Shown in pieces: positions 8,078-43,544 of a stretch of 47,385 nucleotides of DNA (position 1 is the first letter of the stretch; each line of letters starts with the position of its first letter). The position numbers and the translations under genes are program-made. Below the pieces are notes generated by a model. That model made no database searches. It saw only the letters and a program-made list of their open reading frames with translations, and was not told where the DNA came from. Source of the stretch: a virus (Duplodnaviria > Caudoviricetes); the IMG/VR virus record IMGVR_UViG_3300033076_000501, positions 1 to 47,385 of that record. The stretch is one strand, 5' to 3'.

Positions 8078-8466
8078 TAGGCTCAATCTACGGTACCTCA
8101 TCCTCAATCCAAGTCACTTATAGTGGCGGAAGTAATTATATCAATAATTACAGTGGAGCACAGGGTGTAGGTAATATGAGATACAACACTACTAGTCAAA
8201 GTATGGAAGTATTTGATGGTAACAACTGGTTAAAACTCAACGAAGGTACAGCCAGTGTTAGCTTATCAGGTGAGGTCGAAGCTCTCTTGGATTGGGCACG
8301 AAAGAAACGTGCCGAAGAATGGGAGCTTGAAAGATTAGCACAAGAGCACCCATCTATCAAAGATTTAGTAGACCAAATCAATCTTAAAAAAGAACAAATC
8401 AAAATGGTTCAGACTCTAATTAAGAGTCCGGGCGATGATGCAATCAAACCATCAATGGTACCTTAA
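8074..8466 (+). CDS. Hypothetical phage protein
   Basis: Start and stop coupled to both neighbours; contains GNMRYNTTSQSMEVFDGNNW. Confidence 0.7.
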   Translation: MIGSIYGTSSSIQVTYSGGSNYINNYSGAQGVGNMRYNTTSQSMEVFDGNNWLKLNEGTASVSLSGEVEALLDWARKKRAEEWELERLAQEHPSIKDLVDQINLKKEQIKMVQTLIKSPGDDAIKPSMVP

Positions 8467-9932
8467 TGGAACAAGTTAAATTAACAGATACACATAGCTC
8501 AGAATGGGCGTTGTTCTTACCTGCTGTAAGTAGTTTTTACATCAGCGGCTTGGGTAAGCAACGCAAGGGCATAGATTACTTCCCTAAAGAAAGAATCCCT
8601 GCAAGTTTCAACGGCGACGTAGAGAAACTAAACTTTCTTAATAGTAAAGAAGGTCTATACACTTACAAGTGGGGTTTGTATTCTGCTGGTCATGCTAACT
8701 TAGATACAACTGTTGACGATCCTAGTGAATCTATCATTAGAGAACGTGAAGAAGGTACATTCATGTTGGGTGACTCAGGTGGTTTCCAGATTCTTAAAGG
8801 TCAATGGCCTGCTGATTGGAAAGATCCTAACTGTCCTAAGGCTATGGAGAAAAGAAAGATTGTTTTAAAGTGGATGGACACATACATGGACTATGGCATG
8901 TGTTTAGATATCCCTTCTCAGTCTTTCCTTAATACTGCTGCCATTCCAATGCACGGTATTCACAACATCCAAGAAGCGATTGATGCTACTCATATTAATA
9001 ATGAGTACTTTGTTAAACATCGTAATGGTTCATGTAAGTTCTTGAACGTTTTGCAAGGTACTAATCATACTGAAAGTGATGATTGGTACAATGAAATGAA
9101 GAAATACTGTGACCCAAATATCTATCCAGACAATCACTTTAATGGTTGGGCGTTCGGGGGTCAGAATAAGATTGACATTCACTTGACATTGCGTAGAATG
9201 GTTGACATTATCTATGATGGATTGTTGATTGAAGGTAAGCACGATTTGATTCACTGTTTGGGTGTATCTATCCTTGAGTATGCTGTGTTGTTTACTGATA
9301 TTCAAAAAGCAATTCGCAAATATCACAACCCAAAACTTCAAATTACGTTTGACTGTGCAAGCCCATTCTTCTCGGCAGCTAAAGGTTTGGCGTATTTCAA
9401 CAACAGTTTGAATGATGACGAGAAATGGTCATATCAAATGACCAAAACAGTTGAGAACAAAGACTATGCTACAGACAATCGTAAGTTTTCGGATGCCTGC
9501 TTACAAGACGGTATCCATACTATGTTTACAGACAGTCCAGTAACTGATAAACTACTTGTTCGTGACGTATGTTATCGTGGACATGGTTTCATAGGTCAAC
9601 ATGGTAAAGAAACTAAAACAAGCTGGGATACTTTGAGTTATACATTGATTCAATCGCATAATGTTTATCAACACATCTATGCTGTACAGGAAGCAAACCG
9701 TCGATATGAGCAGGGAATTACTCCTGCTATGGTTCATCACTTTGATTCTGGTATCAAATTCAAAGATATCGTTGATGAAGTGTTTTCAAAGAAAACTAGA
9801 CAAGAAAGCCATGCTGTAATCGAACAATATAGTTCATTATGGAAGCAAATGTCAGCAGGTGCACAGGGCTTTAGTGGTAAGAAAACAGTTAACGCACGTA
9901 CTAAGTTTAACGAATTATTTACATTTGAATAA
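8466..9932 (+). CDS. dpdA: TGT-fold transglycosylase, DpdA-like (inserts 7-deazaguanine base into DNA)
   Basis: TGT motifs appear in order: DSGGFQ, LDIP, VLQG, WAFGG, HCLG, TFDCAS, and a late HN. It clusters with folE, queD and queE. Confidence 0.8.
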   Translation: MEQVKLTDTHSSEWALFLPAVSSFYISGLGKQRKGIDYFPKERIPASFNGDVEKLNFLNSKEGLYTYKWGLYSAGHANLDTTVDDPSESIIREREEGTFMLGDSGGFQILKGQWPADWKDPNCPKAMEKRKIVLKWMDTYMDYGMCLDIPSQSFLNTAAIPMHGIHNIQEAIDATHINNEYFVKHRNGSCKFLNVLQGTNHTESDDWYNEMKKYCDPNIYPDNHFNGWAFGGQNKIDIHLTLRRMVDIIYDGLLIEGKHDLIHCLGVSILEYAVLFTDIQKAIRKYHNPKLQITFDCASPFFSAAKGLAYFNNSLNDDEKWSYQMTKTVENKDYATDNRKFSDACLQDGIHTMFTDSPVTDKLLVRDVCYRGHGFIGQHGKETKTSWDTLSYTLIQSHNVYQHIYAVQEANRRYEQGITPAMVHHFDSGIKFKDIVDEVFSKKTRQESHAVIEQYSSLWKQMSAGAQGFSGKKTVNARTKFNELFTFE

Positions 9933-9933
9933 T

Positions 9934-10134
9934 ATGCCATACAAGCAACGAATCGCAACACTAACAGAATCACATCGTCTAATCGACGGGGTCATTCAAG
10001 ACTTAATGCTAAATCCAAACTACGACCAAATGAAAGTCAATGCACTAAAGAAGCAGAAACTTATCTACAAGGATGATATTCGTAGATTTGAACGAGCCCA
10101 AGAAGAACATGACAAGGAAATGAACCATGAGTGA
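9934..10134 (+). CDS. DUF465/YdcH-like small coiled-coil protein
   Basis: H..ID..I...LKKQKLIYKDDI pattern. ATG 9934 is preferred over the overlapping start in the ORF track. Confidence 0.65.
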   Translation: MPYKQRIATLTESHRLIDGVIQDLMLNPNYDQMKVNALKKQKLIYKDDIRRFERAQEEHDKEMNHE

Positions 10135-10582
10135 ACAAAGAGAACAAGCACTATTCGAACAACGTCAACGTATTAGCCAAGCGGCTAAACGTATGATTTT
10201 TGTAACATTTCAAAAGGAAGGCATCCATTGCTATCCGGCTGCGGCAACTGACCCTGCACTTAAAACAGGTGACATGTATGACGTTAGCTTTCTAGGAACT
10301 CCGCATCGGCACATTTTTCACTTTAATGTGGCGATTGAAGTCTTTCACAACGATAGGGATATCGAGTTTATTCAATTCAAGCGTTGGCTAGAGCATCTAT
10401 ATGCTCAAGGCACACTAGAGTTGGATTACAAAAGTTGTGAAATGTTAAGTGACGATTTGTACAACCAAATCGCTACACGATATCCTGACCGTAACATTGA
10501 GATTACTGTCTCCGAAGATGGTGAGAACGGTGCTACGATTTATTACAATTTAACACAACCTCTCAACAACCTAAAAATTTAA
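10127..10582 (+). CDS. dpdL: QueD paralog (T-fold), DpdL-like putative CDG decarboxylase
   Basis: LGTPHRHIF matches LxxxHRHxF; T-fold motifs SCEM and VSEDGENG; a canonical QueD is present separately. Confidence 0.7.
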   Translation: MSEQREQALFEQRQRISQAAKRMIFVTFQKEGIHCYPAAATDPALKTGDMYDVSFLGTPHRHIFHFNVAIEVFHNDRDIEFIQFKRWLEHLYAQGTLELDYKSCEMLSDDLYNQIATRYPDRNIEITVSEDGENGATIYYNLTQPLNNLKI

Positions 10583-11996: not shown

Positions 11997-12209
11997 ATGG
12001 CAACAAAGAAACCAAAGAATCAATCATCAAATGGTTGGCCTAAGATTAATCAAGGTACACATTTGACTGTAAAGACTTTTGAAGATGGTACGACTGAACT
12101 TGTTTGGGATGACGTTCAACTATTGAAAGAAGTACAAGAGGCAATCGCCTCGGTGGAAGCACCAAAGAAAACAACTAAAGGAAAGAAGAAAAATGTCAGC
12201 ACACAATGA
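11997..12209 (+). CDS. Hypothetical protein
   Basis: AAGGA ribosome-binding site; in operon context. Confidence 0.65.
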   Translation: MATKKPKNQSSNGWPKINQGTHLTVKTFEDGTTELVWDDVQLLKEVQEAIASVEAPKKTTKGKKKNVSTQ

Positions 12210-12390
12210 TATCAATACACACTTAGAAGCATACCTAGCAGAACATGAAAAGTTTGAAAAGGGTAATGCAGCAGCAGGTACTCGTGCCCGTAAAGCATTA
12301 GCAGAAATGGCTAAAGCAATCAAAGCACGCCGTAACGAAATTACTGCTGAAAAAGCGGCACGTGCAGAAGCAAAAGCTGCAGGTAAGTAA
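12193..12390 (+). CDS. Hc1-like (histone H1-like) small basic protein
   Basis: KFEKGNAAAGTRARKALAEMAKAIKARRNEI signature. Confidence 0.75.
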   Translation: MSAHNDINTHLEAYLAEHEKFEKGNAAAGTRARKALAEMAKAIKARRNEITAEKAARAEAKAAGK

Positions 12391-12497
12391 TGACTGTACT
12401 AGATGTATTTCTAGGTTTAGGCGAAGTTGTAATCTTCTTCGCCTTTTTCATCCTAGCACTAAAATTATTCGGAAACTTAATCAGTCGTGATAAATAA
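12390..12497 (+). CDS. Small single-pass membrane protein (35 aa)
   Basis: TAATG coupling; MTVLDVFLGLGEVVIFFAFFILALKLFGNLISRDK. Below the ORF-track size cutoff. Confidence 0.5.
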   Translation: MTVLDVFLGLGEVVIFFAFFILALKLFGNLISRDK

Positions 12498-12556
12498 ACA
12501 TGTAACACAACGGTTACAAAATATCAAAACAAAACCATCACAAAGGAAGGTTATCA

Positions 12557-13243
12557 ATGTCATACAACAAAACAAAATGTGATCCATCATTGGGTCTAGC
12601 AGTACACGAACACTTAGTTAAAATGGGTGTTGAAACTCCAATCAAAGAAACAGGTCAAATCATCGACCGTAAAGGTAAAATCGAAGTCATCGAATCATTG
12701 TTTGCAGATATTATGAAAACAATGGGATTAGACTTGACTGATGATAGTCTTATCGAAACACCAAAGCGTGTTGCTAAGATGTACGTTAATGAAATTTTCT
12801 GGGGCTTAGATTATGAAGCATTTCCAAAATGTACTACCGTGGACAATAAAATGCAATACAACGAAATGGTTGTTGAGCGCAATGTTTCAGTTCAAAGTAA
12901 TTGCGAACACCATTTTGTCGTTATCGATGGTTTGGCAACAGTTGCTTATGTTCCCAAACAAAAAGTCTTGGGCTTATCGAAAATCAACCGAATCGTTGAA
13001 TATTTTTCTAAACGCCCGCAAATCCAAGAACGACTTACGGAGCAGATTTTTCATGCTCTACAATATATTCTTGAAACCGAAGACGTTGCAGTCCTCATCG
13101 ATGCACAGCATTATTGCGTTAAGTCAAGAGGTGTCGAAGACACAGGGTCAAGCACTGTCACTTGTCGTCTCGGTGGAGGCTTCAAAACTGATCCATCAGC
13201 ACGTGCGGAGTTCTTACAAATCGCAAACAAAGGTTGCAAATAA
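12557..13243 (+). CDS. folE: GTP cyclohydrolase I
   Basis: ETPKRVAKMY, SNCEHH, GLSKINRIV, RPQIQERLT, HYCVKSRG. Confidence 0.96.
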   Translation: MSYNKTKCDPSLGLAVHEHLVKMGVETPIKETGQIIDRKGKIEVIESLFADIMKTMGLDLTDDSLIETPKRVAKMYVNEIFWGLDYEAFPKCTTVDNKMQYNEMVVERNVSVQSNCEHHFVVIDGLATVAYVPKQKVLGLSKINRIVEYFSKRPQIQERLTEQIFHALQYILETEDVAVLIDAQHYCVKSRGVEDTGSSTVTCRLGGGFKTDPSARAEFLQIANKGCK

Positions 13244-13419
13244 TGGAAACATTAGCTAATCTGAGTTTGCTAATTGGTTTGATTTTAAAGGGCGCAGCTT
13301 ACATTTTTGTATGTTGTGTTCTTGCTTTAGGTATTTTCTATATCATAAAGAAGACTCCGGACAGCGCATGTCACGGTGATTGCAATCAAGGTCGCAACTG
13401 CAACTGTAAAGGAAAGTAA
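13243..13419 (+). CDS. Small membrane protein with Cys-rich C-terminus
   Basis: Hydrophobic stretch followed by CHGDCNQGRNCNC. Confidence 0.55.
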   Translation: METLANLSLLIGLILKGAAYIFVCCVLALGIFYIIKKTPDSACHGDCNQGRNCNCKGK

Positions 13420-13420
13420 C

Positions 13421-13657
13421 ATGGGTTTTAAAAAGCCAATGGATTACAATTCAGTAAGTCATCAAATTTATATGGCAGGTGTAGAACTATGCTCACCAAA
13501 GAACGATGGGTTCACTCAATGGGAAATCAAAAAAGATTTATACAAACTTAAATGGTTGTTGGATCAGATTATGGATGATAGTTCTACGTTTGTTGACGAA
13601 GAACAATTCTTAAAAGAACACGAGCAGGTGAAGATGTGGCGTACACTAGCCAAGTAA
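13421..13657 (+). CDS. Hypothetical protein
   Basis: AAGGA ribosome-binding site before ATG 13421. Confidence 0.65.
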   Translation: MGFKKPMDYNSVSHQIYMAGVELCSPKNDGFTQWEIKKDLYKLKWLLDQIMDDSSTFVDEEQFLKEHEQVKMWRTLAK

Positions 13658-13947
13658 TAGACCTAAAAAAGGCACACGAGGAATTTCTTGAGGAACTTAG
13701 AAATGATCCAGTGAAACTTAAAAAGTTCATTCGTGAAATTTCTGGTCCTGAAACGAGAACTCTCACGGGACAAGAACGTGACCATATGATTACTGTATTC
13801 AATTTGATAGATCCTGTCGAATCGAGCAATAATCAACGTGTATGGACTGATGTATATCAACATGCAGGTAAAATATATAACGTTCATTTCTTTGAAGAAG
13901 AAACTGTAATAGAAGAAGTACTACCAGATGATTTTCAACAAGATTAA
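13636..13947 (+). CDS. Hypothetical protein
   Basis: In-operon ORF. Confidence 0.6.
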   Translation: MAYTSQVIDLKKAHEEFLEELRNDPVKLKKFIREISGPETRTLTGQERDHMITVFNLIDPVESSNNQRVWTDVYQHAGKIYNVHFFEEETVIEEVLPDDFQQD

Positions 13948-14389
13948 ACAATTAAAAGAACAAGGTAAAAAGATTGGCATCACGTTCTCGACTTTTGACT
14001 TACTTCACGCGGGGCACATTGCAATGTTGGCTGAGGCTAAAAATCACTGTGATTACCTTATTGCAGGGCTCCAAACTGACCCAACAATCGACCGCCCTGA
14101 AACTAAGAATAAGCCTGTCCAATCTATCGTTGAGAGACAGATTCAATTGGCGTCGTGTCGTTTCGTTGATGAAGTTGTTGTTTACTCTACGGAGCAGGAT
14201 CTTATCGACCTTCTCCTTATCTTACCTATTGACGTTAGGATACTTGGAGTTGAATACGCTCACACAGATTTCACAGGACGACTAGAAGGTGGTGATAAGG
14301 GTATTGAACATATTTTCAATAGTCGTGACCACTCATTCAGTTCAAGTAGTTTACGTAAACGTGTAGCAGAAGCACAAAAGGATAAGTAA
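13928..14389 (+). CDS. Cytidylyltransferase (TagD/RfaE-like, HIGH family)
   Basis: TFDLLHAGH, LIAGLQTD, ER...CRFVDEV, RDHSFSSSSLRKR. Confidence 0.9.
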   Translation: MIFNKIKQLKEQGKKIGITFSTFDLLHAGHIAMLAEAKNHCDYLIAGLQTDPTIDRPETKNKPVQSIVERQIQLASCRFVDEVVVYSTEQDLIDLLLILPIDVRILGVEYAHTDFTGRLEGGDKGIEHIFNSRDHSFSSSSLRKRVAEAQKDK

Positions 14390-14688
14390 TGGATTTAGAA
14401 AGATTTGTCAGACACTTTGGTTTCAAAGTTGTACGAATTAGAGAAGACCGTCCCTATCAATATCTTGATGGGTATGATTCATATAAGTCATCTTATTACA
14501 CTAACTATGACCGTAGTTGTATTGAAATGGAAATTAGTCGCAGAGAGTTAGAACATTTGGCAGACTACTTTTCTAAAATGGAAGACTTGAATCGCAAAGA
14601 CCATGAAGATTATGTTATCCGACGTGAGAATCCTGCAGTCCAAGAAGCATACAGTAAGTACCAAATGTTATTGGAACTCTACAGATAA
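14389..14688 (+). CDS. Hypothetical protein
   Basis: TAATG coupling; C-terminal NPAVQEAYSKYQMLLEL motif, which recurs in the ORF at 23993. Confidence 0.65.
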   Translation: MDLERFVRHFGFKVVRIREDRPYQYLDGYDSYKSSYYTNYDRSCIEMEISRRELEHLADYFSKMEDLNRKDHEDYVIRRENPAVQEAYSKYQMLLELYR

Positions 14689-14701
14689 GGTAAATAAACA
14701 T

Positions 14702-14761
14702 AGCGGCCTTAGCATCATCCCGCTTTACAAATTCTGCTGCCTATGCTATAATACACATAGG
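14702..14761 (+). ncRNA. preQ1-I-like H-type pseudoknot plus RBS-sequestering hairpin (candidate riboswitch) upstream of queD
   Basis: P1 AGCGG/CCGCT with a 13-nt loop CCTTAGCATCATC; A-rich tail TTACAAA; P2 TAGCA/TGCTG; hairpin CCTATG/CATAGG over the RBS. Confidence 0.5.
14724..14752 (+). promoter_or_regulatory. Sigma70-type promoter embedded in the queD leader
   Basis: TTTACA-17 nt-TATAAT with a TGn extended -10. Confidence 0.6.
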
Positions 14762-14768
14762 AGAAAAT

Positions 14769-15269
14769 ATGCATAACCCAGTAACTTACAAATACACAAG
14801 TACAAAAGAGTACCATGACGCATTCCCTTGCGCATATCGTCAATGGCGCGCAGACAGTCATTGCAACACAATTCATGGCTATAGTTTCAGTATGAAATTC
14901 TATTTCGGTACAAACGATTTAGATGCTCGTAACTGGGCAGCCGATTACGGTGGCTTGAAAGAACTAAAGAAGTTCTTAGAAGACCAATTCGACCACACAC
15001 TAATCGTAGCACAGGATGACCCAGAAATGGAAACATTCAAGTTGTTGCAAGAAAAGAAGATGGCTAAAATCATCATTCTACCTGCACTAGGTTGCGAAGC
15101 ATTAAGTGACCAATTATACAAATATGTCAACGGTGTTTACATTCCCGAAATGTGGGGAGAAGGTGAAGCGAAACGTCTATGGTGCTATCGTGTAGAAGTT
15201 CGTGAGACACAATCAAATATGGCTTTCCGTGAAGGACACCGTGAATGGAACGAAAACCTATTTGACTAA
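14769..15269 (+). CDS. queD: 6-carboxy-5,6,7,8-tetrahydropterin synthase
   Basis: HCNTIHGYSF (CxxxHG), DYGGLK, FDHT, GCE, EVRET. Confidence 0.9.
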   Translation: MHNPVTYKYTSTKEYHDAFPCAYRQWRADSHCNTIHGYSFSMKFYFGTNDLDARNWAADYGGLKELKKFLEDQFDHTLIVAQDDPEMETFKLLQEKKMAKIIILPALGCEALSDQLYKYVNGVYIPEMWGEGEAKRLWCYRVEVRETQSNMAFREGHREWNENLFD

Positions 15270-15484
15270 TGGAAGTATGGATTCGTATTATCATTAAATT
15301 AGTTGCAGGTGTCATGTCAATACTTGACGCCAGCAACTTACGAAATCGGTTATACGAAGTCAAGGACGAGCATGAAGTCATGTGGACTGCTTTGGATGAT
15401 ATTGCTAGAATGCACCCAGATAGTCCAGCTGGTAAATATGCTAAAGAAACATTAAAACAAATCAAACACAAATACGGAAGATGA
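15269..15484 (+). CDS. Hypothetical protein
   Basis: TAATG coupling. Confidence 0.55.
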   Translation: MEVWIRIIIKLVAGVMSILDASNLRNRLYEVKDEHEVMWTALDDIARMHPDSPAGKYAKETLKQIKHKYGR

Positions 15485-15639
15485 AACATTTTTGGAGACT
15501 ATGGGCAAAAGCCCTAGGTGAGAAAGCAGGTGATACGGATCGGGAAGCTGACCGTATTGCTTTCATTAGAACCTGCATTGTGTTAACATACATCATCACA
15601 AACATTTTTATTGTAGCAGGCGTTATAAGGCATTGGTAA
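15481..15639 (+). CDS. Small membrane protein (52 aa)
   Basis: ATGA/TAATG coupling; MKHFWRLWAKALGEKAG...ADRIAFIRT...NIFIVAGVIRHW. Absent from the ORF track because of its size. Confidence 0.65.
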   Translation: MKHFWRLWAKALGEKAGDTDREADRIAFIRTCIVLTYIITNIFIVAGVIRHW

Positions 15640-16481
15640 TGAGCAAATTAAAAGTAGCAGAATTATTTTATAGTATTCAGGGTGAAGGTAGATACATGGG
15701 AGTCCCTTCTGTGTTCTTACGAACATATGGATGCAATTTTACATGTGGCGGCTTCGGCATGCCAAAAGGACAGTTAAGCGATGAAAGAAACAAGATTGAT
15801 GCACTTAGTATCAAAGAGTATAAAGACTTACCATTGGTGTCTACAGGTTGTGATAGCTATGCTAGTTGGGATCCTAACTTCAAGCATCTTAGCCCTGTGT
15901 TATCTACTGATAGTATTGCCGACAGCATTTGTACTATATTGCCTCATGGGCGTTGGATGGATGAGCACTTGGTTATCACCGGTGGTGAACCTCTACTTGG
16001 ATGGCAAAGAGCGTATCCAGACTTACTTTCAAACGAGAAAATGAAACCTCTTAAAGAGATTACATTTGAAACTAATGGTACTCAAATGTTGTCTACTGAG
16101 TTTAGAGACTATCTCCAAGACTGGAAGCGCAATCGTGAAAAGAACGCATTGACATTCAGTGTTAGTCCCAAGTTATCAGTTAGTGGAGAAAAGTATGATG
16201 AAGCGATTTTGCCTGACGTTATTCGTCAATACCAAGATGTGGGTTTTGTATACCTTAAGTTCGTTGTGGCATCAGAAGAAGATGTACGTGAAGCAGAAAA
16301 GGCTGTAGAAGATTACAAGCGCGGTGGCTTCAAAGGTCCAGTATACTTAATGCCAGTCGGTGGTGTTGAAAGTGTATATTCATTGAACGCAAAGAACGTA
16401 GCACTAGCCGCAATGAAACGAGGCTGGCGCTACTCAGATAGATTACAAGTACCGTTATTTAAAAACGAGTGGGGAACATGA
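15639..16481 (+). CDS. queE: 7-carboxy-7-deazaguanine synthase (radical SAM)
   Basis: FYSIQGEG, VFLRTYGCNFTC...GCDS, VITGGEP, FETNG, SVSPK, YLMP. Confidence 0.92.
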   Translation: MSKLKVAELFYSIQGEGRYMGVPSVFLRTYGCNFTCGGFGMPKGQLSDERNKIDALSIKEYKDLPLVSTGCDSYASWDPNFKHLSPVLSTDSIADSICTILPHGRWMDEHLVITGGEPLLGWQRAYPDLLSNEKMKPLKEITFETNGTQMLSTEFRDYLQDWKRNREKNALTFSVSPKLSVSGEKYDEAILPDVIRQYQDVGFVYLKFVVASEEDVREAEKAVEDYKRGGFKGPVYLMPVGGVESVYSLNAKNVALAAMKRGWRYSDRLQVPLFKNEWGT

Positions 16482-16708
16482 GAGAGAAGATTTTACATCA
16501 AGCATACGTGAAAGGGTTGTACGCACAGGGTACTCCCGATTCATGGGATGAAGAAGCATTATATCAATTTGGGCAGCACCTTATTGATATGTGCCTTGAC
16601 GCAGTTGAACAAATGGACACGTTGAAGGGTGCAACTACTTACGACAAAGATTTAGTTGAAAGTACCAAACACCACTGCGCCCAAGCGATTGAAAGAAAGT
16701 TTAAATGA
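16478..16708 (+). CDS. Hypothetical protein
   Basis: ATGA coupling at both ends. Confidence 0.6.
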   Translation: MREKILHQAYVKGLYAQGTPDSWDEEALYQFGQHLIDMCLDAVEQMDTLKGATTYDKDLVESTKHHCAQAIERKFK

Positions 16709-18096
16709 GAACATACAGTAAACGAATTGGTTTCTTAGTTAGTTATCAAACATTGATACCGCACGGTGGTATTGGTCAATTCACAAAGAGTTTTTGTGAA
16801 TTGATGGATGAACATAACATCAAAGTTGATATCATCACTGATAAGAACCCTAGTAGGATTGATGCTGATTTTGTTAAATCCCTAAAGGCTAATATTATTT
16901 ACCCTGATAACCCTATCGGGAAAGAAGCCGATATTGCAAAAAACAAAAGGTCAGATTACGGGGAACATAGTGCTATCTTTATGTACGGTGACACATTTTG
17001 CTATGAGCGCATGGCAAACTTTCGCAACAGTATTATAAAAGCATTGGAGCACAATATATACGATGCGTTTGTCTGTAACACATACGAAACAGTCCAAGTG
17101 GCAAGTACAATGGGTCTCGAAGATGTTATCCAAATCATTGCTTATACTCATTTAGAAAGTCAAATTTTTAATTGGACAAAGAATCCATTCTTAAAGAATA
17201 CCAATGAGATGATGCGACTACAGTTACAAGTAAGTTCATTATATGTTGGCACACAAAGTAAATTTAACCATCTTGAATTAGAAGATAGAATTTCAATAAA
17301 CAATGTTTGTCACTTACCTATCCCTATCACAGAAAGAGATTTACTAACAGAGTATCAAGGTGAGCGTGAAGGCATCTTGTTCGTAGGTCGTTGGGAAGAA
17401 GGCAAGAATCCAGAGTTGTTTATTGAGTTGATTGAGCAAACAGGACTACCTGCTAAAGTAATGACTAGTCCCAATGGCGTTAAGAAGTTTGAAGAACGCT
17501 TAGAAAAGATTGGTGCTAAGTATGATGTCCGTGCTAGTATCATTGGACAAGAGAAGGTAGACTTTATTAAGTCAAGCCGCATTGCTTTCAACCCTAGTAC
17601 AGTTGAGAGTTATGGCATGGCTTTCTATGAGCAACATATTCAATTACCAACACTTGTACTAACAGAGCAACGATGGACTGGTAACTTTAACAGTGATTAC
17701 TTTTACACTTGCACCAAGTTGACTATGGCCAAACGAGCAAAAGAGTTGTATGATAGTTTTGATACCTCTGAGAAATGGTATAACTTAGGTTCATTGGATC
17801 ATGCAAAACAACAAGAGGCAAATGTGTTTCACAAATGGAATACATGTTTCAATATGTTTGAATCAAAGCAATCTAACAGTAACACCGCTAAGATTCTAGA
17901 GAACACTACAGTTAAGTATAGTGATTTTATAAAAGACTTGGGAAGAAAAATTATCTGTATTGATGATTGTCGTTCGGCATTGACTAATCGTAGTAAATTC
18001 AGAGTTATCTACACAGACACCGATACTTATTTAACTAAAGATCCGTCATTTGAACCAACAGAGGAAGTAACAGGCGCAAGTTTGTTTCAATTTTAA
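16705..18096 (+). CDS. GT-B fold glycosyltransferase (GT4-like) with C-terminal extension
   Basis: N-terminal PHGGIG; ILFVGRWEEGKNP; PSTVESYGMAFYE (EX7E). Confidence 0.88.
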   Translation: MRTYSKRIGFLVSYQTLIPHGGIGQFTKSFCELMDEHNIKVDIITDKNPSRIDADFVKSLKANIIYPDNPIGKEADIAKNKRSDYGEHSAIFMYGDTFCYERMANFRNSIIKALEHNIYDAFVCNTYETVQVASTMGLEDVIQIIAYTHLESQIFNWTKNPFLKNTNEMMRLQLQVSSLYVGTQSKFNHLELEDRISINNVCHLPIPITERDLLTEYQGEREGILFVGRWEEGKNPELFIELIEQTGLPAKVMTSPNGVKKFEERLEKIGAKYDVRASIIGQEKVDFIKSSRIAFNPSTVESYGMAFYEQHIQLPTLVLTEQRWTGNFNSDYFYTCTKLTMAKRAKELYDSFDTSEKWYNLGSLDHAKQQEANVFHKWNTCFNMFESKQSNSNTAKILENTTVKYSDFIKDLGRKIICIDDCRSALTNRSKFRVIYTDTDTYLTKDPSFEPTEEVTGASLFQF

Positions 18097-42735: not shown

Positions 42736-43188
42736 ATGACACAAGAAAACAGAACTTTAACACTAAGAGCGTTGGACATCCCAACCATTCACAAATTTGG
42801 CATCGGCTTTGACCAAATGTTTGATGAATTGATGAGAACAACATCAAAACAATCAACTAACTATCCACCCCATAACATTCTAAAGATTGATGAAAACAAT
42901 TTTGTCATTCAATTAGCAGTCGCTGGATTCGGTGATGGTGAGATTGACATTCAAGTAGAAGGTCAAGTATTGTCAATCGTTGGTAGTTCTACCAGTGATA
43001 ACAAATACGGTGCAGAATACTTGATTCGTGGAATCAGTATGCGTGACTTTGAACGTACATTCACTTTGGCTGAGCATGTCGAAGTTAAGAACGCCGAAAT
43101 CACAAACGGTATCTTGTCAATCGAATTGGAACGAATCATTCCAGTTGAAAAATTACCCAAGAAAATTGACATTAAGTTCAATAAATAA
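42736..43188 (+). CDS. ibpA: Small heat-shock protein (Hsp20/IbpA-like)
   Basis: IGFDQMF, NYPPHNI, LAVAGF, YLIRGISMRDFERTFTL, NGILSIEL. Confidence 0.93.
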   Translation: MTQENRTLTLRALDIPTIHKFGIGFDQMFDELMRTTSKQSTNYPPHNILKIDENNFVIQLAVAGFGDGEIDIQVEGQVLSIVGSSTSDNKYGAEYLIRGISMRDFERTFTLAEHVEVKNAEITNGILSIELERIIPVEKLPKKIDIKFNK

Positions 43189-43241
43189 TATAATATAAAC
43201 ATAGTGCGGGGATAGTCTCCGCACTTCTCTAGGAAACTAAC

Positions 43242-43544
43242 ATGGCAGATACCCAAATTACAATTAAACCCAATCTTAAATTGTCAGAACCTCCGTTGTA
43301 CAAAGTCATCTACATGAATGATGACACCACTACAATGGATTTCGTTGTACGTAGTTTGGTTGACCATTTCAACTATAACGTAGACACCGCGGCTCACATT
43401 ACAACTAGCATCCATGATGATGGTTCTGCTGTTGTCGCAGTCTTACCGTATGAAATTGCAGAACAAAAGGGTATAGAAGTTACTCTTGACGCACGTGCAG
43501 AGGGATTCCCATTGCAAGTTAAAGTCGAGGCTAGTGAAGGTTAA
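43242..43544 (+). CDS. clpS: Clp protease adaptor ClpS
   Basis: PPLYKVIYMNDDTTTMDFVV, IHDDGSAVV, YEIAEQK, FPLQV. Confidence 0.92.
   Translation: MADTQITIKPNLKLSEPPLYKVIYMNDDTTTMDFVVRSLVDHFNYNVDTAAHITTSIHDDGSAVVAVLPYEIAEQKGIEVTLDARAEGFPLQVKVEASEG

Follow-up and report, generated by a model that had tools for sequence, protein, structure and literature searches.

Results

Gene neighborhood and leader of a phage queD-like gene

The window analyzed here is the entire stretch of a 47-kb viral record (47,385 nt), which is about 11% complete and whose complete relatives span 328 to 524 kb. An 80-nt gap (positions 14689 to 14768) separates a 99-aa ORF from a queD-like gene, which resides among the following genes.

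8466 to 9932, + strand: likely DpdA-type transglycosylase (DSGGFQ motif; placed in a TGT-like cluster at 0.93 by features)
10127 to 10582, + strand: DpdL, proposed CDG decarboxylase (LxxxHRHxF signature, as given in the excerpts of PMC10516641)
12557 to 13243, + strand: folE (GTP cyclohydrolase I)
14769 to 15269, + strand: queD-like gene, PTPS fold, CxxxHGY (Pfam PTPS, 6e-16; phrog_2389)
15633 to 16481, + strand: queE-like radical SAM gene

The QueD-like product matches the QueD protein of Acidovorax phage ACP17 at 52%. It carries CxxxHGY rather than the canonical CxxxHGH that is the stated QueD signature, as do 339 of the 346 QueD-like proteins linked to the RNA motif described below, and we assume that the substrate of this CxxxHGY enzyme is that of QueD. 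DpdL matches proteins of ACP17 (58%) and Cellulophaga phage phiST (34%). For the DpdA-like protein, Pfam, PHROG and PDB sequence searches gave no match, the predicted folds are of low confidence, and the Foldseek rows to aTGT/DpdA obtained from such a model are weak. In five relatives (G001, G007, G009, G017, and G024), the match to the dpdA-like gene is split near residue 125 by an in-frame insertion of about 30 to 50 codons inside one ORF.

DpdL was detected in 34 and the DpdA-like gene in 32 of 36 large relatives, while 34 of 35 have FolE and 33 of 35 have QueE. The initial annotation of this DNA had described a local pathway without QueC, and indeed QueC has no match in the record and just partial matches in 11 of the 36 relatives. 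Two loci encode PP-loop proteins of about 210 aa with a C-terminal CxxCxxC that match part of QueC and sit away from queD (L547, 1474 to 2094; L549, 1060 to 1695). According to the excerpts of PMC10516641, DpdA, FolE, QueD, QueE, and DpdL likewise occur without QueC in phiST and ACP17, the set FolE-QueD-QueE-DpdL-DpdA predicts 7-deazaguanine in DNA, and no activity of DpdL was demonstrated in E. coli. By gene content, the pathway FolE-QueD-QueE-DpdL-DpdA without full-length QueC is predicted to yield 7-deazaguanine DNA here as well. Between 8466 and 18924, the dpdA-like, dpdL, folE, queD, and queE genes alternate with genes for two glycosyltransferases, an NAD-dependent epimerase, and a cytidylyltransferase-like protein, possibly for a sugar-decorated deazaguanine.

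The leader of the queD-like gene, whose ATG start codon is at 14769, can be divided into the following parts.

14691 to 14696, + strand: TAARTA box (TAAATA), predicted late gp55-type promoter, from its position relative to P1 in relatives
14702 to 14706, + strand: P1 5′ strand AGCGG; the last two G-C pairs are invariant and G14706-C14720 is the putative pocket floor
14707 to 14709, + strand: L1, a variable bulged base and then invariant CU (14708-14709)
14712 to 14717, + strand: pseudoknot 5′ strand, with P2b GCA (14712-14714), mismatch U14715, and P2a CA (14716-14717)
14718 to 14719, + strand: L2, U and the putative specificity base C14719 (equivalent of preQ1-I C17)
14720 to 14724, + strand: P1 3′ strand CCGCU
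14724 to 14752, + strand: predicted sigma70-type promoter (TTTACA, 17, TGn-TATAAT), overlapping tail and hairpin
14725 to 14734, + strand: A-rich tail L3, ending in invariant U14733-C14734
14735 to 14741, + strand: pseudoknot 3′ strand UG-C-UGC(C), whose 3′ end also begins the anti-Shine-Dalgarno strand
14740 to 14761, + strand: P3 hairpin CCUAUG (14740-14745)/CAUAGG (14756-14761), covering the GG of the Shine-Dalgarno (SD) sequence and competing with P2b
14759 to 14763, + strand: SD sequence AGGAG, from the sequence

The loop between the P1 strands is 13 nt long (14707 to 14719). All pieces named in the initial annotation (box, stem, loop, tail, hairpin, RBS, and promoter) are found where it had placed them, and a search for a second copy of the motif within the 47-kb window found none. 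Folding of this single copy is no better than that of shuffled sequences (z = 0.13). The Rfam search, which covered all catalogued families and not just the proposed preQ1-I model, was negative: nothing in the window reached the gathering score, and no family matched at E ≤ 10 in 14400 to 15000. Because single-copy folding is uninformative and Rfam is empty, conservation was assessed among homologues.

The motif is tied to queD in homologous loci

A sequence model, partly trained on the 80 loci fetched by QueD protein similarity alone, matches upstream of queD in 75 of these 80. Three of the five unmatched loci have a leader of 15 nt or less and another has about 40 nt, whereas the fifth is a different phage with queE immediately upstream. 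This protein-selected set provided 55 distinct cores out of 74 hits, with 1 unparsed. A wider set was built by pattern scans, wherein 378 of 423 loci were parsed and 10 were removed by eye as chance matches, leaving 368 loci and 202 distinct cores. A pattern with paired P1 gave 74 hits (6 set aside as chance), and a control pattern with mismatched P1 gave 6 viral hits that include no motif copies.

The first ORF behind the motif is QueD-like in 346 of 359 loci, and the QueD proteins linked to it are from 23% to more than 90% identical to that of this record. Each of 34 virus records carries one strong copy, and this single queD-linked copy holds even where folE, queE, or dpdL lie 70 to 250 kb away. 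In at least nine loci, another gene lies between the motif and queD or is first behind the motif, and queD follows wherever enough sequence exists. Such first genes, which use the RBS of the motif (L067, L083, L124, L138, L170, L181, L437, L500, and L532), encode cupin-like, thioredoxin-like, GIY-YIG-like endonuclease, 85-aa, and ~220-aa proteins, as labeled by sequence reading. In one locus (L032, 2484 to 3500), an additional QueD-like gene, with CxxxHGH, stands between the motif and the usual CxxxHGY queD. The motif is absent from a complete 163-kb phage (G006) in which a close QueD is encoded behind queE.

P1 and a pseudoknot covary among queD leaders

Pairs 2 and 3 of P1 are Watson–Crick in all 55 protein-selected cores, with a double change in 14. 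The predominant P1 is AGCGG/CCGCU (38 cores), followed by AGAGG/CCUCU (7), ACCGG/CCGGU (5), AGUGG/CCACU (2), and UGCGG/CCGCA (2), and one core has a terminal mismatch. When a metagenome scan was conducted with P1 left free, pair 2 was G-C in 78 and C-G in 12 of 96 anchored hits, a total that includes chance hits. Tree counts for P1 pairs 2 and 3 (36 and 27) are inflated because the scan patterns demanded pairing, and therefore the case for P1 rests on the free-P1 scan and the protein-selected cores.

The pseudoknot was originally drawn with the register UAGCA/UGCUG, which is formable in this copy, yet only 45.6% of its cells pair across 100 homologues, compared with 42.7% in shuffles, and the register was rejected. 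The conserved register instead includes CA 14716-14717 with UG 14735-14736, a U·C mismatch, and GCA 14712-14714 with UGC 14738-14740. In a gapless 100-row alignment, this register is paired in 81.0% of cells versus 63.3% in shuffles; none of 500 shuffles reach the observed value and slid registers give 24 to 42%. Counted in fixed register, 664 of 808 pseudoknot cells are paired, against a shuffle mean of 404 and a maximum of 443. P2a is CA/UG in 189 of the 202 cores, CG/CG in 12, and unpaired in 1. When mapped on a 188-protein QueD tree, the base pair adjoining the pocket switched between A-U and G-C 11 times with no break. P2b is 3 to 7 bp long and its sequence changes freely across cores (GGCA/UGCC, GGUG/CACC, AACG/CGUU, GACUU/AAGUC, and AGUGU/ACACU are examples). 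Four P2b positions underwent 59, 49, 45, and 11 double changes on the QueD tree, along with 35, 29, 25, and 35 steps involving a non-pair, to which bulge variants contribute because the register was fixed. In this copy P2b is weak, with an A14711·C14741 mismatch.

The leader alignment proposed as a check thus reveals compensatory changes in both P1 and P2, and the prediction that a P1 stem and an H-type pseudoknot are conserved in phage queD leaders is upheld by strong covariation of both. Judged by comparative sequence analysis, the element is real, namely a covarying and conserved RNA pseudoknot.

Invariant unpaired bases suggest a ligand-binding pocket

Three groups of unpaired nucleotides are present in 55 of 55 protein-selected cores: CU in L1, the C just before the P1 3′ strand, and UC at the end of the tail. 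Targeted scans for exceptions to these invariant unpaired bases found none; for example, a scan for any non-U base at the tail U returned 6 hits, none of which is a real motif copy. Among 28 hits without C at L1 position 2, all 13 real copies keep CU one base later. The base preceding the specificity C is U in 182 of 202 cores (90%). The first loop base was correctly recorded in the initial annotation as C in place of the conserved U, but this position is a variable bulge (U in 21 cores, C in 19, A in 15; 1 to 2 nt in relatives), and it is the CU after it that is conserved.

According to the excerpts of PMC11625349, the class I preQ1 pocket is composed of a G5-C18 floor, C17, U6, and A30, with A30 reading N2/N3 of the ligand, whereas type I members add U7, U16, and C31 for a second ligand, and preQ1-II and preQ1-III use a single U to read the minor-groove edge. 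The queD element, with an aptamer of about 40 nt, resembles type I preQ1-I RNAs (e.g. that of Carnobacterium antarcticum) as they appear in those excerpts, in that both are H-type pseudoknots (~35 to 40 nt) with a G-C-closed 5-bp P1, UC ahead of the P1 3′ strand, an A-rich L3, a C31-like tail C, and a site before a que gene. It keeps the G-C floor, the specificity C (C17), U16 (90%), and a U at the U7-like place. By analogy with the role described for C17, C14719 would act as the specificity base.

The differences are concentrated where preQ1-I reads its ligand. With positions mapped by analogy, the queD element has C for U6 and an invariant U for A30, and its L1 consists of the bulge and CU where type I has U6-U7 (UU also in type III). 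Its L2, of 1 to 2 nt, is short relative to that of preQ1-I. Its P2 is formed by 2 bp, the U·C mismatch, and 3 to 7 bp and never contains the SD, whereas preQ1-I buries the SD in P2 or uses a terminator. Because the U6 and A30 readers are replaced, the element by its sequence is not a preQ1-I member despite the same fold. The initial preQ1-I-like reading holds for the fold, with an altered pocket.

A precedent for the putative C and U pocket is the THF-II riboswitch, which, in the excerpts of PMC9881143, binds THF, dihydroneopterin, and 7-deazaguanine using just a C and a U that read the 2-amino-4-oxo-pyrimidine ring, and likewise controls a pterin-pathway gene at translation. Since THF-II holds its ligands by C and U, the ligand of the queD element is likely guanine-faced. 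By the same analogy, such a pocket would not discriminate between pterins on one side and guanine or deazaguanines on the other, given that THF-II accepts both. THF-II has a rod-like two-helix fold with junctional C22/U44 and is an OFF switch on folE, whereas the queD element is a pseudoknot on queD. Membership in THF-II was ruled out by the pseudoknot fold, the queD context, and the empty Rfam search.

A phage leader structure that controls the translation of one gene is also found in the T4 gene 32 pseudoknot, which, in the excerpts of PMC10690425, serves protein-bound autorepression of an ssDNA-binding protein and has no metabolite pocket. The queD element might similarly be a translational operator, read by QueD, DpdL, DpdA, or a host factor, and autoregulation would suit a motif that occurs once in each genome and always with a single gene. 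We consider this unlikely, given that the invariant bases coincide with those of a small-molecule pocket while the helix sequences vary freely, and that the motif stays the same even where the QueD proteins share as little as 23% identity.

The pseudoknot competes with a helix over the initiation region

With the loop made unavailable for pairing, at least one 3′ base of P2b pairs with the region from SD to start codon in 256 of 259 distinct leaders (51% with shuffled spacers), and at least two do so in 244 of 259 (40% with shuffled spacers). The hairpin does not simply follow the pseudoknot, as first described; P3 shares P2b bases and competes with it. Several layouts accomplish this. CCUAUG/CAUAGG covers the SD in 168 leaders, including this copy, a long helix ending in GYCAUC/GAUGGC covers the start codon in 67, and GYCAUUG/CAAUGGC is used in 13, with CCUC/GAGG and ACUCC/GGAGU among the rarer layouts. 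Depending on the layout, the P2b strand pairs either with the SD or with AUG plus codon 2, and this RBS-region partner covaries with P2b.

When the pseudoknot strands are blocked, SD and AUG open in 198 of 259 leaders and close in 2, whereas 44% open in the control; the folding energy model lacks pseudoknots and the ON call uses such blocked-base proxies. This opening is incomplete (mean unpaired, 0.33 to 0.53). In this copy, P3 has a predicted stability of −5.8 kcal/mol when whole, −2.7 without C14740, and +0.4 without both C nucleotides. Here P2b strips one P3 pair where two are usual, such that P3 stays at −2.7 kcal/mol, and forcing the pseudoknot moves SD and AUG from 0.54 to 0.67. Because the pseudoknot and the RBS-blocking helix are alternatives, expression should be ON when the pseudoknot is stabilized. 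The folding model therefore predicts ON control, opposite to that of preQ1-I, whose class I members act OFF in the excerpts of PMC11625349.

The opposite wiring, implied by the initial annotation, also deserves consideration, wherein an end product (CDG, 7-deazaguanine, preQ0, or preQ1) binds the pseudoknot, which then stacks on P3 and leaves the RBS closed. Biosynthetic genes are usually under feedback control, the OFF-acting class I switches in those excerpts have this fold, and P2b takes only one P3 pair in this copy, so both structures could coexist. Such an OFF riboswitch is nonetheless doubtful in view of the two or more bases shared by P2b and the RBS/AUG helix in nearly all leaders, a pseudoknot state that closes the RBS in only 2 of 259, an SD that is never within P2, and the presence of the motif on queD alone rather than on folE or an operon head.

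Two predicted promoters flank and overlap the element

TAARTA occurs 6 to 26 nt upstream of P1 in 169 of 245 distinct upstream regions (shuffled mean 19, maximum 35), and its distance to P1 peaks at 11 to 14 nt. Counted across the entire window, TAAATA shows no enrichment (35 versus 45 expected), and only the position of the box is informative; some of the 9 of 55 cases in the window overlap stop codons. A T4 gp55-like gene is present in 12 of 12 large relatives, mostly with weak E values. From the box position together with the gp55-like genes, we infer that a transcript from the late box would start at about P1. In a third subtype of leaders, a sigma70 −10 element replaces the late box before P1 in 8 of 13. 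Elsewhere in the window, the leader of an ORF at 43242 has TAAATA with a small GC-rich hairpin behind it (43182 to 43230).

The sigma70 match at 14724 to 14752 is the best of 13 in 12000 to 17000 and agrees at 11 of 12 positions. This internal promoter is conserved in the subtype to which this copy belongs (TAnnnT in 160 and TGn in 161 of 167 leaders) and occurs in 0 of 67 leaders of the second subtype. The loop TA could in part be an RNA pairing constraint. A transcript from the internal promoter is predicted from its sequence to start near 14759 and would skip the switch, and this strong promoter could yield most queD mRNA in this subtype without the switch. The initial annotation had noted both the TAAATA late box and the overlapping sigma70 promoter, which are conserved in this subtype, and had cautioned that early transcripts would bypass the structure, a caveat that is apt for this subtype only. 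It had also considered that promoter hexamers might be all that is conserved, but 88 of 91 leaders of the other subtypes lack the internal −10 and retain the pseudoknot.

These promoters are relevant to a proposal that the RNA works without a ligand, by setting the translation rate or stability of late transcripts (timing between promoters) or by responding to temperature or Mg2+. Dual promoters are conserved in the main subtype, and competing helices can work kinetically without a ligand. This account is improbable, because it leaves the invariance of the unpaired C14719, CU, and UC unexplained and because the same core is present in subtypes without the internal promoter. The alternative that conservation is confined to DNA signals (promoter hexamers or an operator), with an RNA structure that arises by accident, can be set aside despite the 11 of 12 sigma70 match over tail and hairpin and the shuffle-like folding of the single copy, since compensatory P1 and P2 changes refute it, the mismatch control is empty, and the core persists without the promoter.

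A candidate translational ON riboswitch for a QueD substrate

The queD element displays the general traits of riboswitches: a covarying aptamer, invariant unpaired bases, a consistent cis gene, and a competing expression platform. We assign a probability of about 0.6 to the interpretation, made from sequence and folding comparisons, that this covarying pseudoknot is a translational ON riboswitch, likely for 7,8-dihydroneopterin or its triphosphate. The late transcript would begin at P1, and P3 would keep the RBS hidden as long as no ligand is bound. C14719 would pair with a guanine-faced ligand, and U14733 would read the other edge of that ligand, which on binding would lock P2, strip the 5′ end from P3, and expose the SD. 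Late in infection, QueD synthesis would thereby depend on accumulation of the QueD substrate, so that less folate is drained, whereas the internal sigma70 promoter would supply unregulated early QueD.

ON riboswitches usually precede a gene for a ligand-consuming enzyme, as with the adenine-add, glycine, and SAH riboswitches. The ON logic and the strict tie to the enzyme at the branch point favor the substrate of QueD, and because of the ON wiring an end product such as CDG or 7-deazaguanine is less likely than an upstream metabolite. If the element is an ON riboswitch, a pterin would be the leading candidate, at somewhat below even odds. Free guanine, which would be released by and compete at DpdA, comes next but is clearly less probable, CDG, 7-deazaguanine, or preQ0 would be slightly less probable again, and any other ligand would be a surprise.

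A more specific proposal is that the motif represents a phage-restricted class that senses dihydroneopterin (or the triphosphate) in a repurposed preQ1-I fold, possibly as two stacked molecules, and switches on QueD. Two stacked ligands are possible because the second-site bases of type I are kept. This proposal is tentative and, in its full form, less likely than not; if true, jumbo phages would divert pterin from folate into 7-deazaguanine DNA armor only at surplus. If the element binds a ligand, it would represent a new riboswitch specificity on the smallest known aptamer fold with its logic reversed, lytic phages would tune a genome-modification pathway by their own metabolite-sensing RNA, and the ligand would show which intermediate limits the still unproven DpdL/7-deazaguanine route.

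Occurrence of the motif

No description of a queD-leader motif was found in the literature: the excerpts of PMC9295807, PMC5737381, and bioRxiv 10.64898/2026.09.22.753630 have no queD motif, the readable tables of PMC10690425 contain no PTPS/queD entry or motif string, and the word riboswitch is absent from the excerpts of PMC10516641 on the DpdL-type dDG system. An unnamed prior listing may nonetheless exist in the large alignment files of PMC10690425 or the supplement of PMC5737381. Among cultured phages, BLASTN gave 19-nt chance matches only, and a model scan of the fetched queD regions of ACP17, X1, and Phosso and of a Paride region gave nothing below E 0.1.

One pattern alone corresponds to an estimated ~1100 stretches in IMG/VR and ~1600 in JGI metagenomes, whereas 118 hits in 185,579 prokaryote genomes (GTDB) include 4 real copies and 114 chance matches. 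Two of the four real copies are on MAG contigs that are probably phage. By these surveys, the motif is a phage-restricted and widespread riboswitch candidate, abundant in aquatic jumbo phages. A freshwater-type MAG titled Haliscomenobacter sp. includes two motif contigs of 183 and 39 kb (L221 and L551; G035), with dpdL and dpdA-like genes, which are probably binned phage DNA and do not indicate a host.
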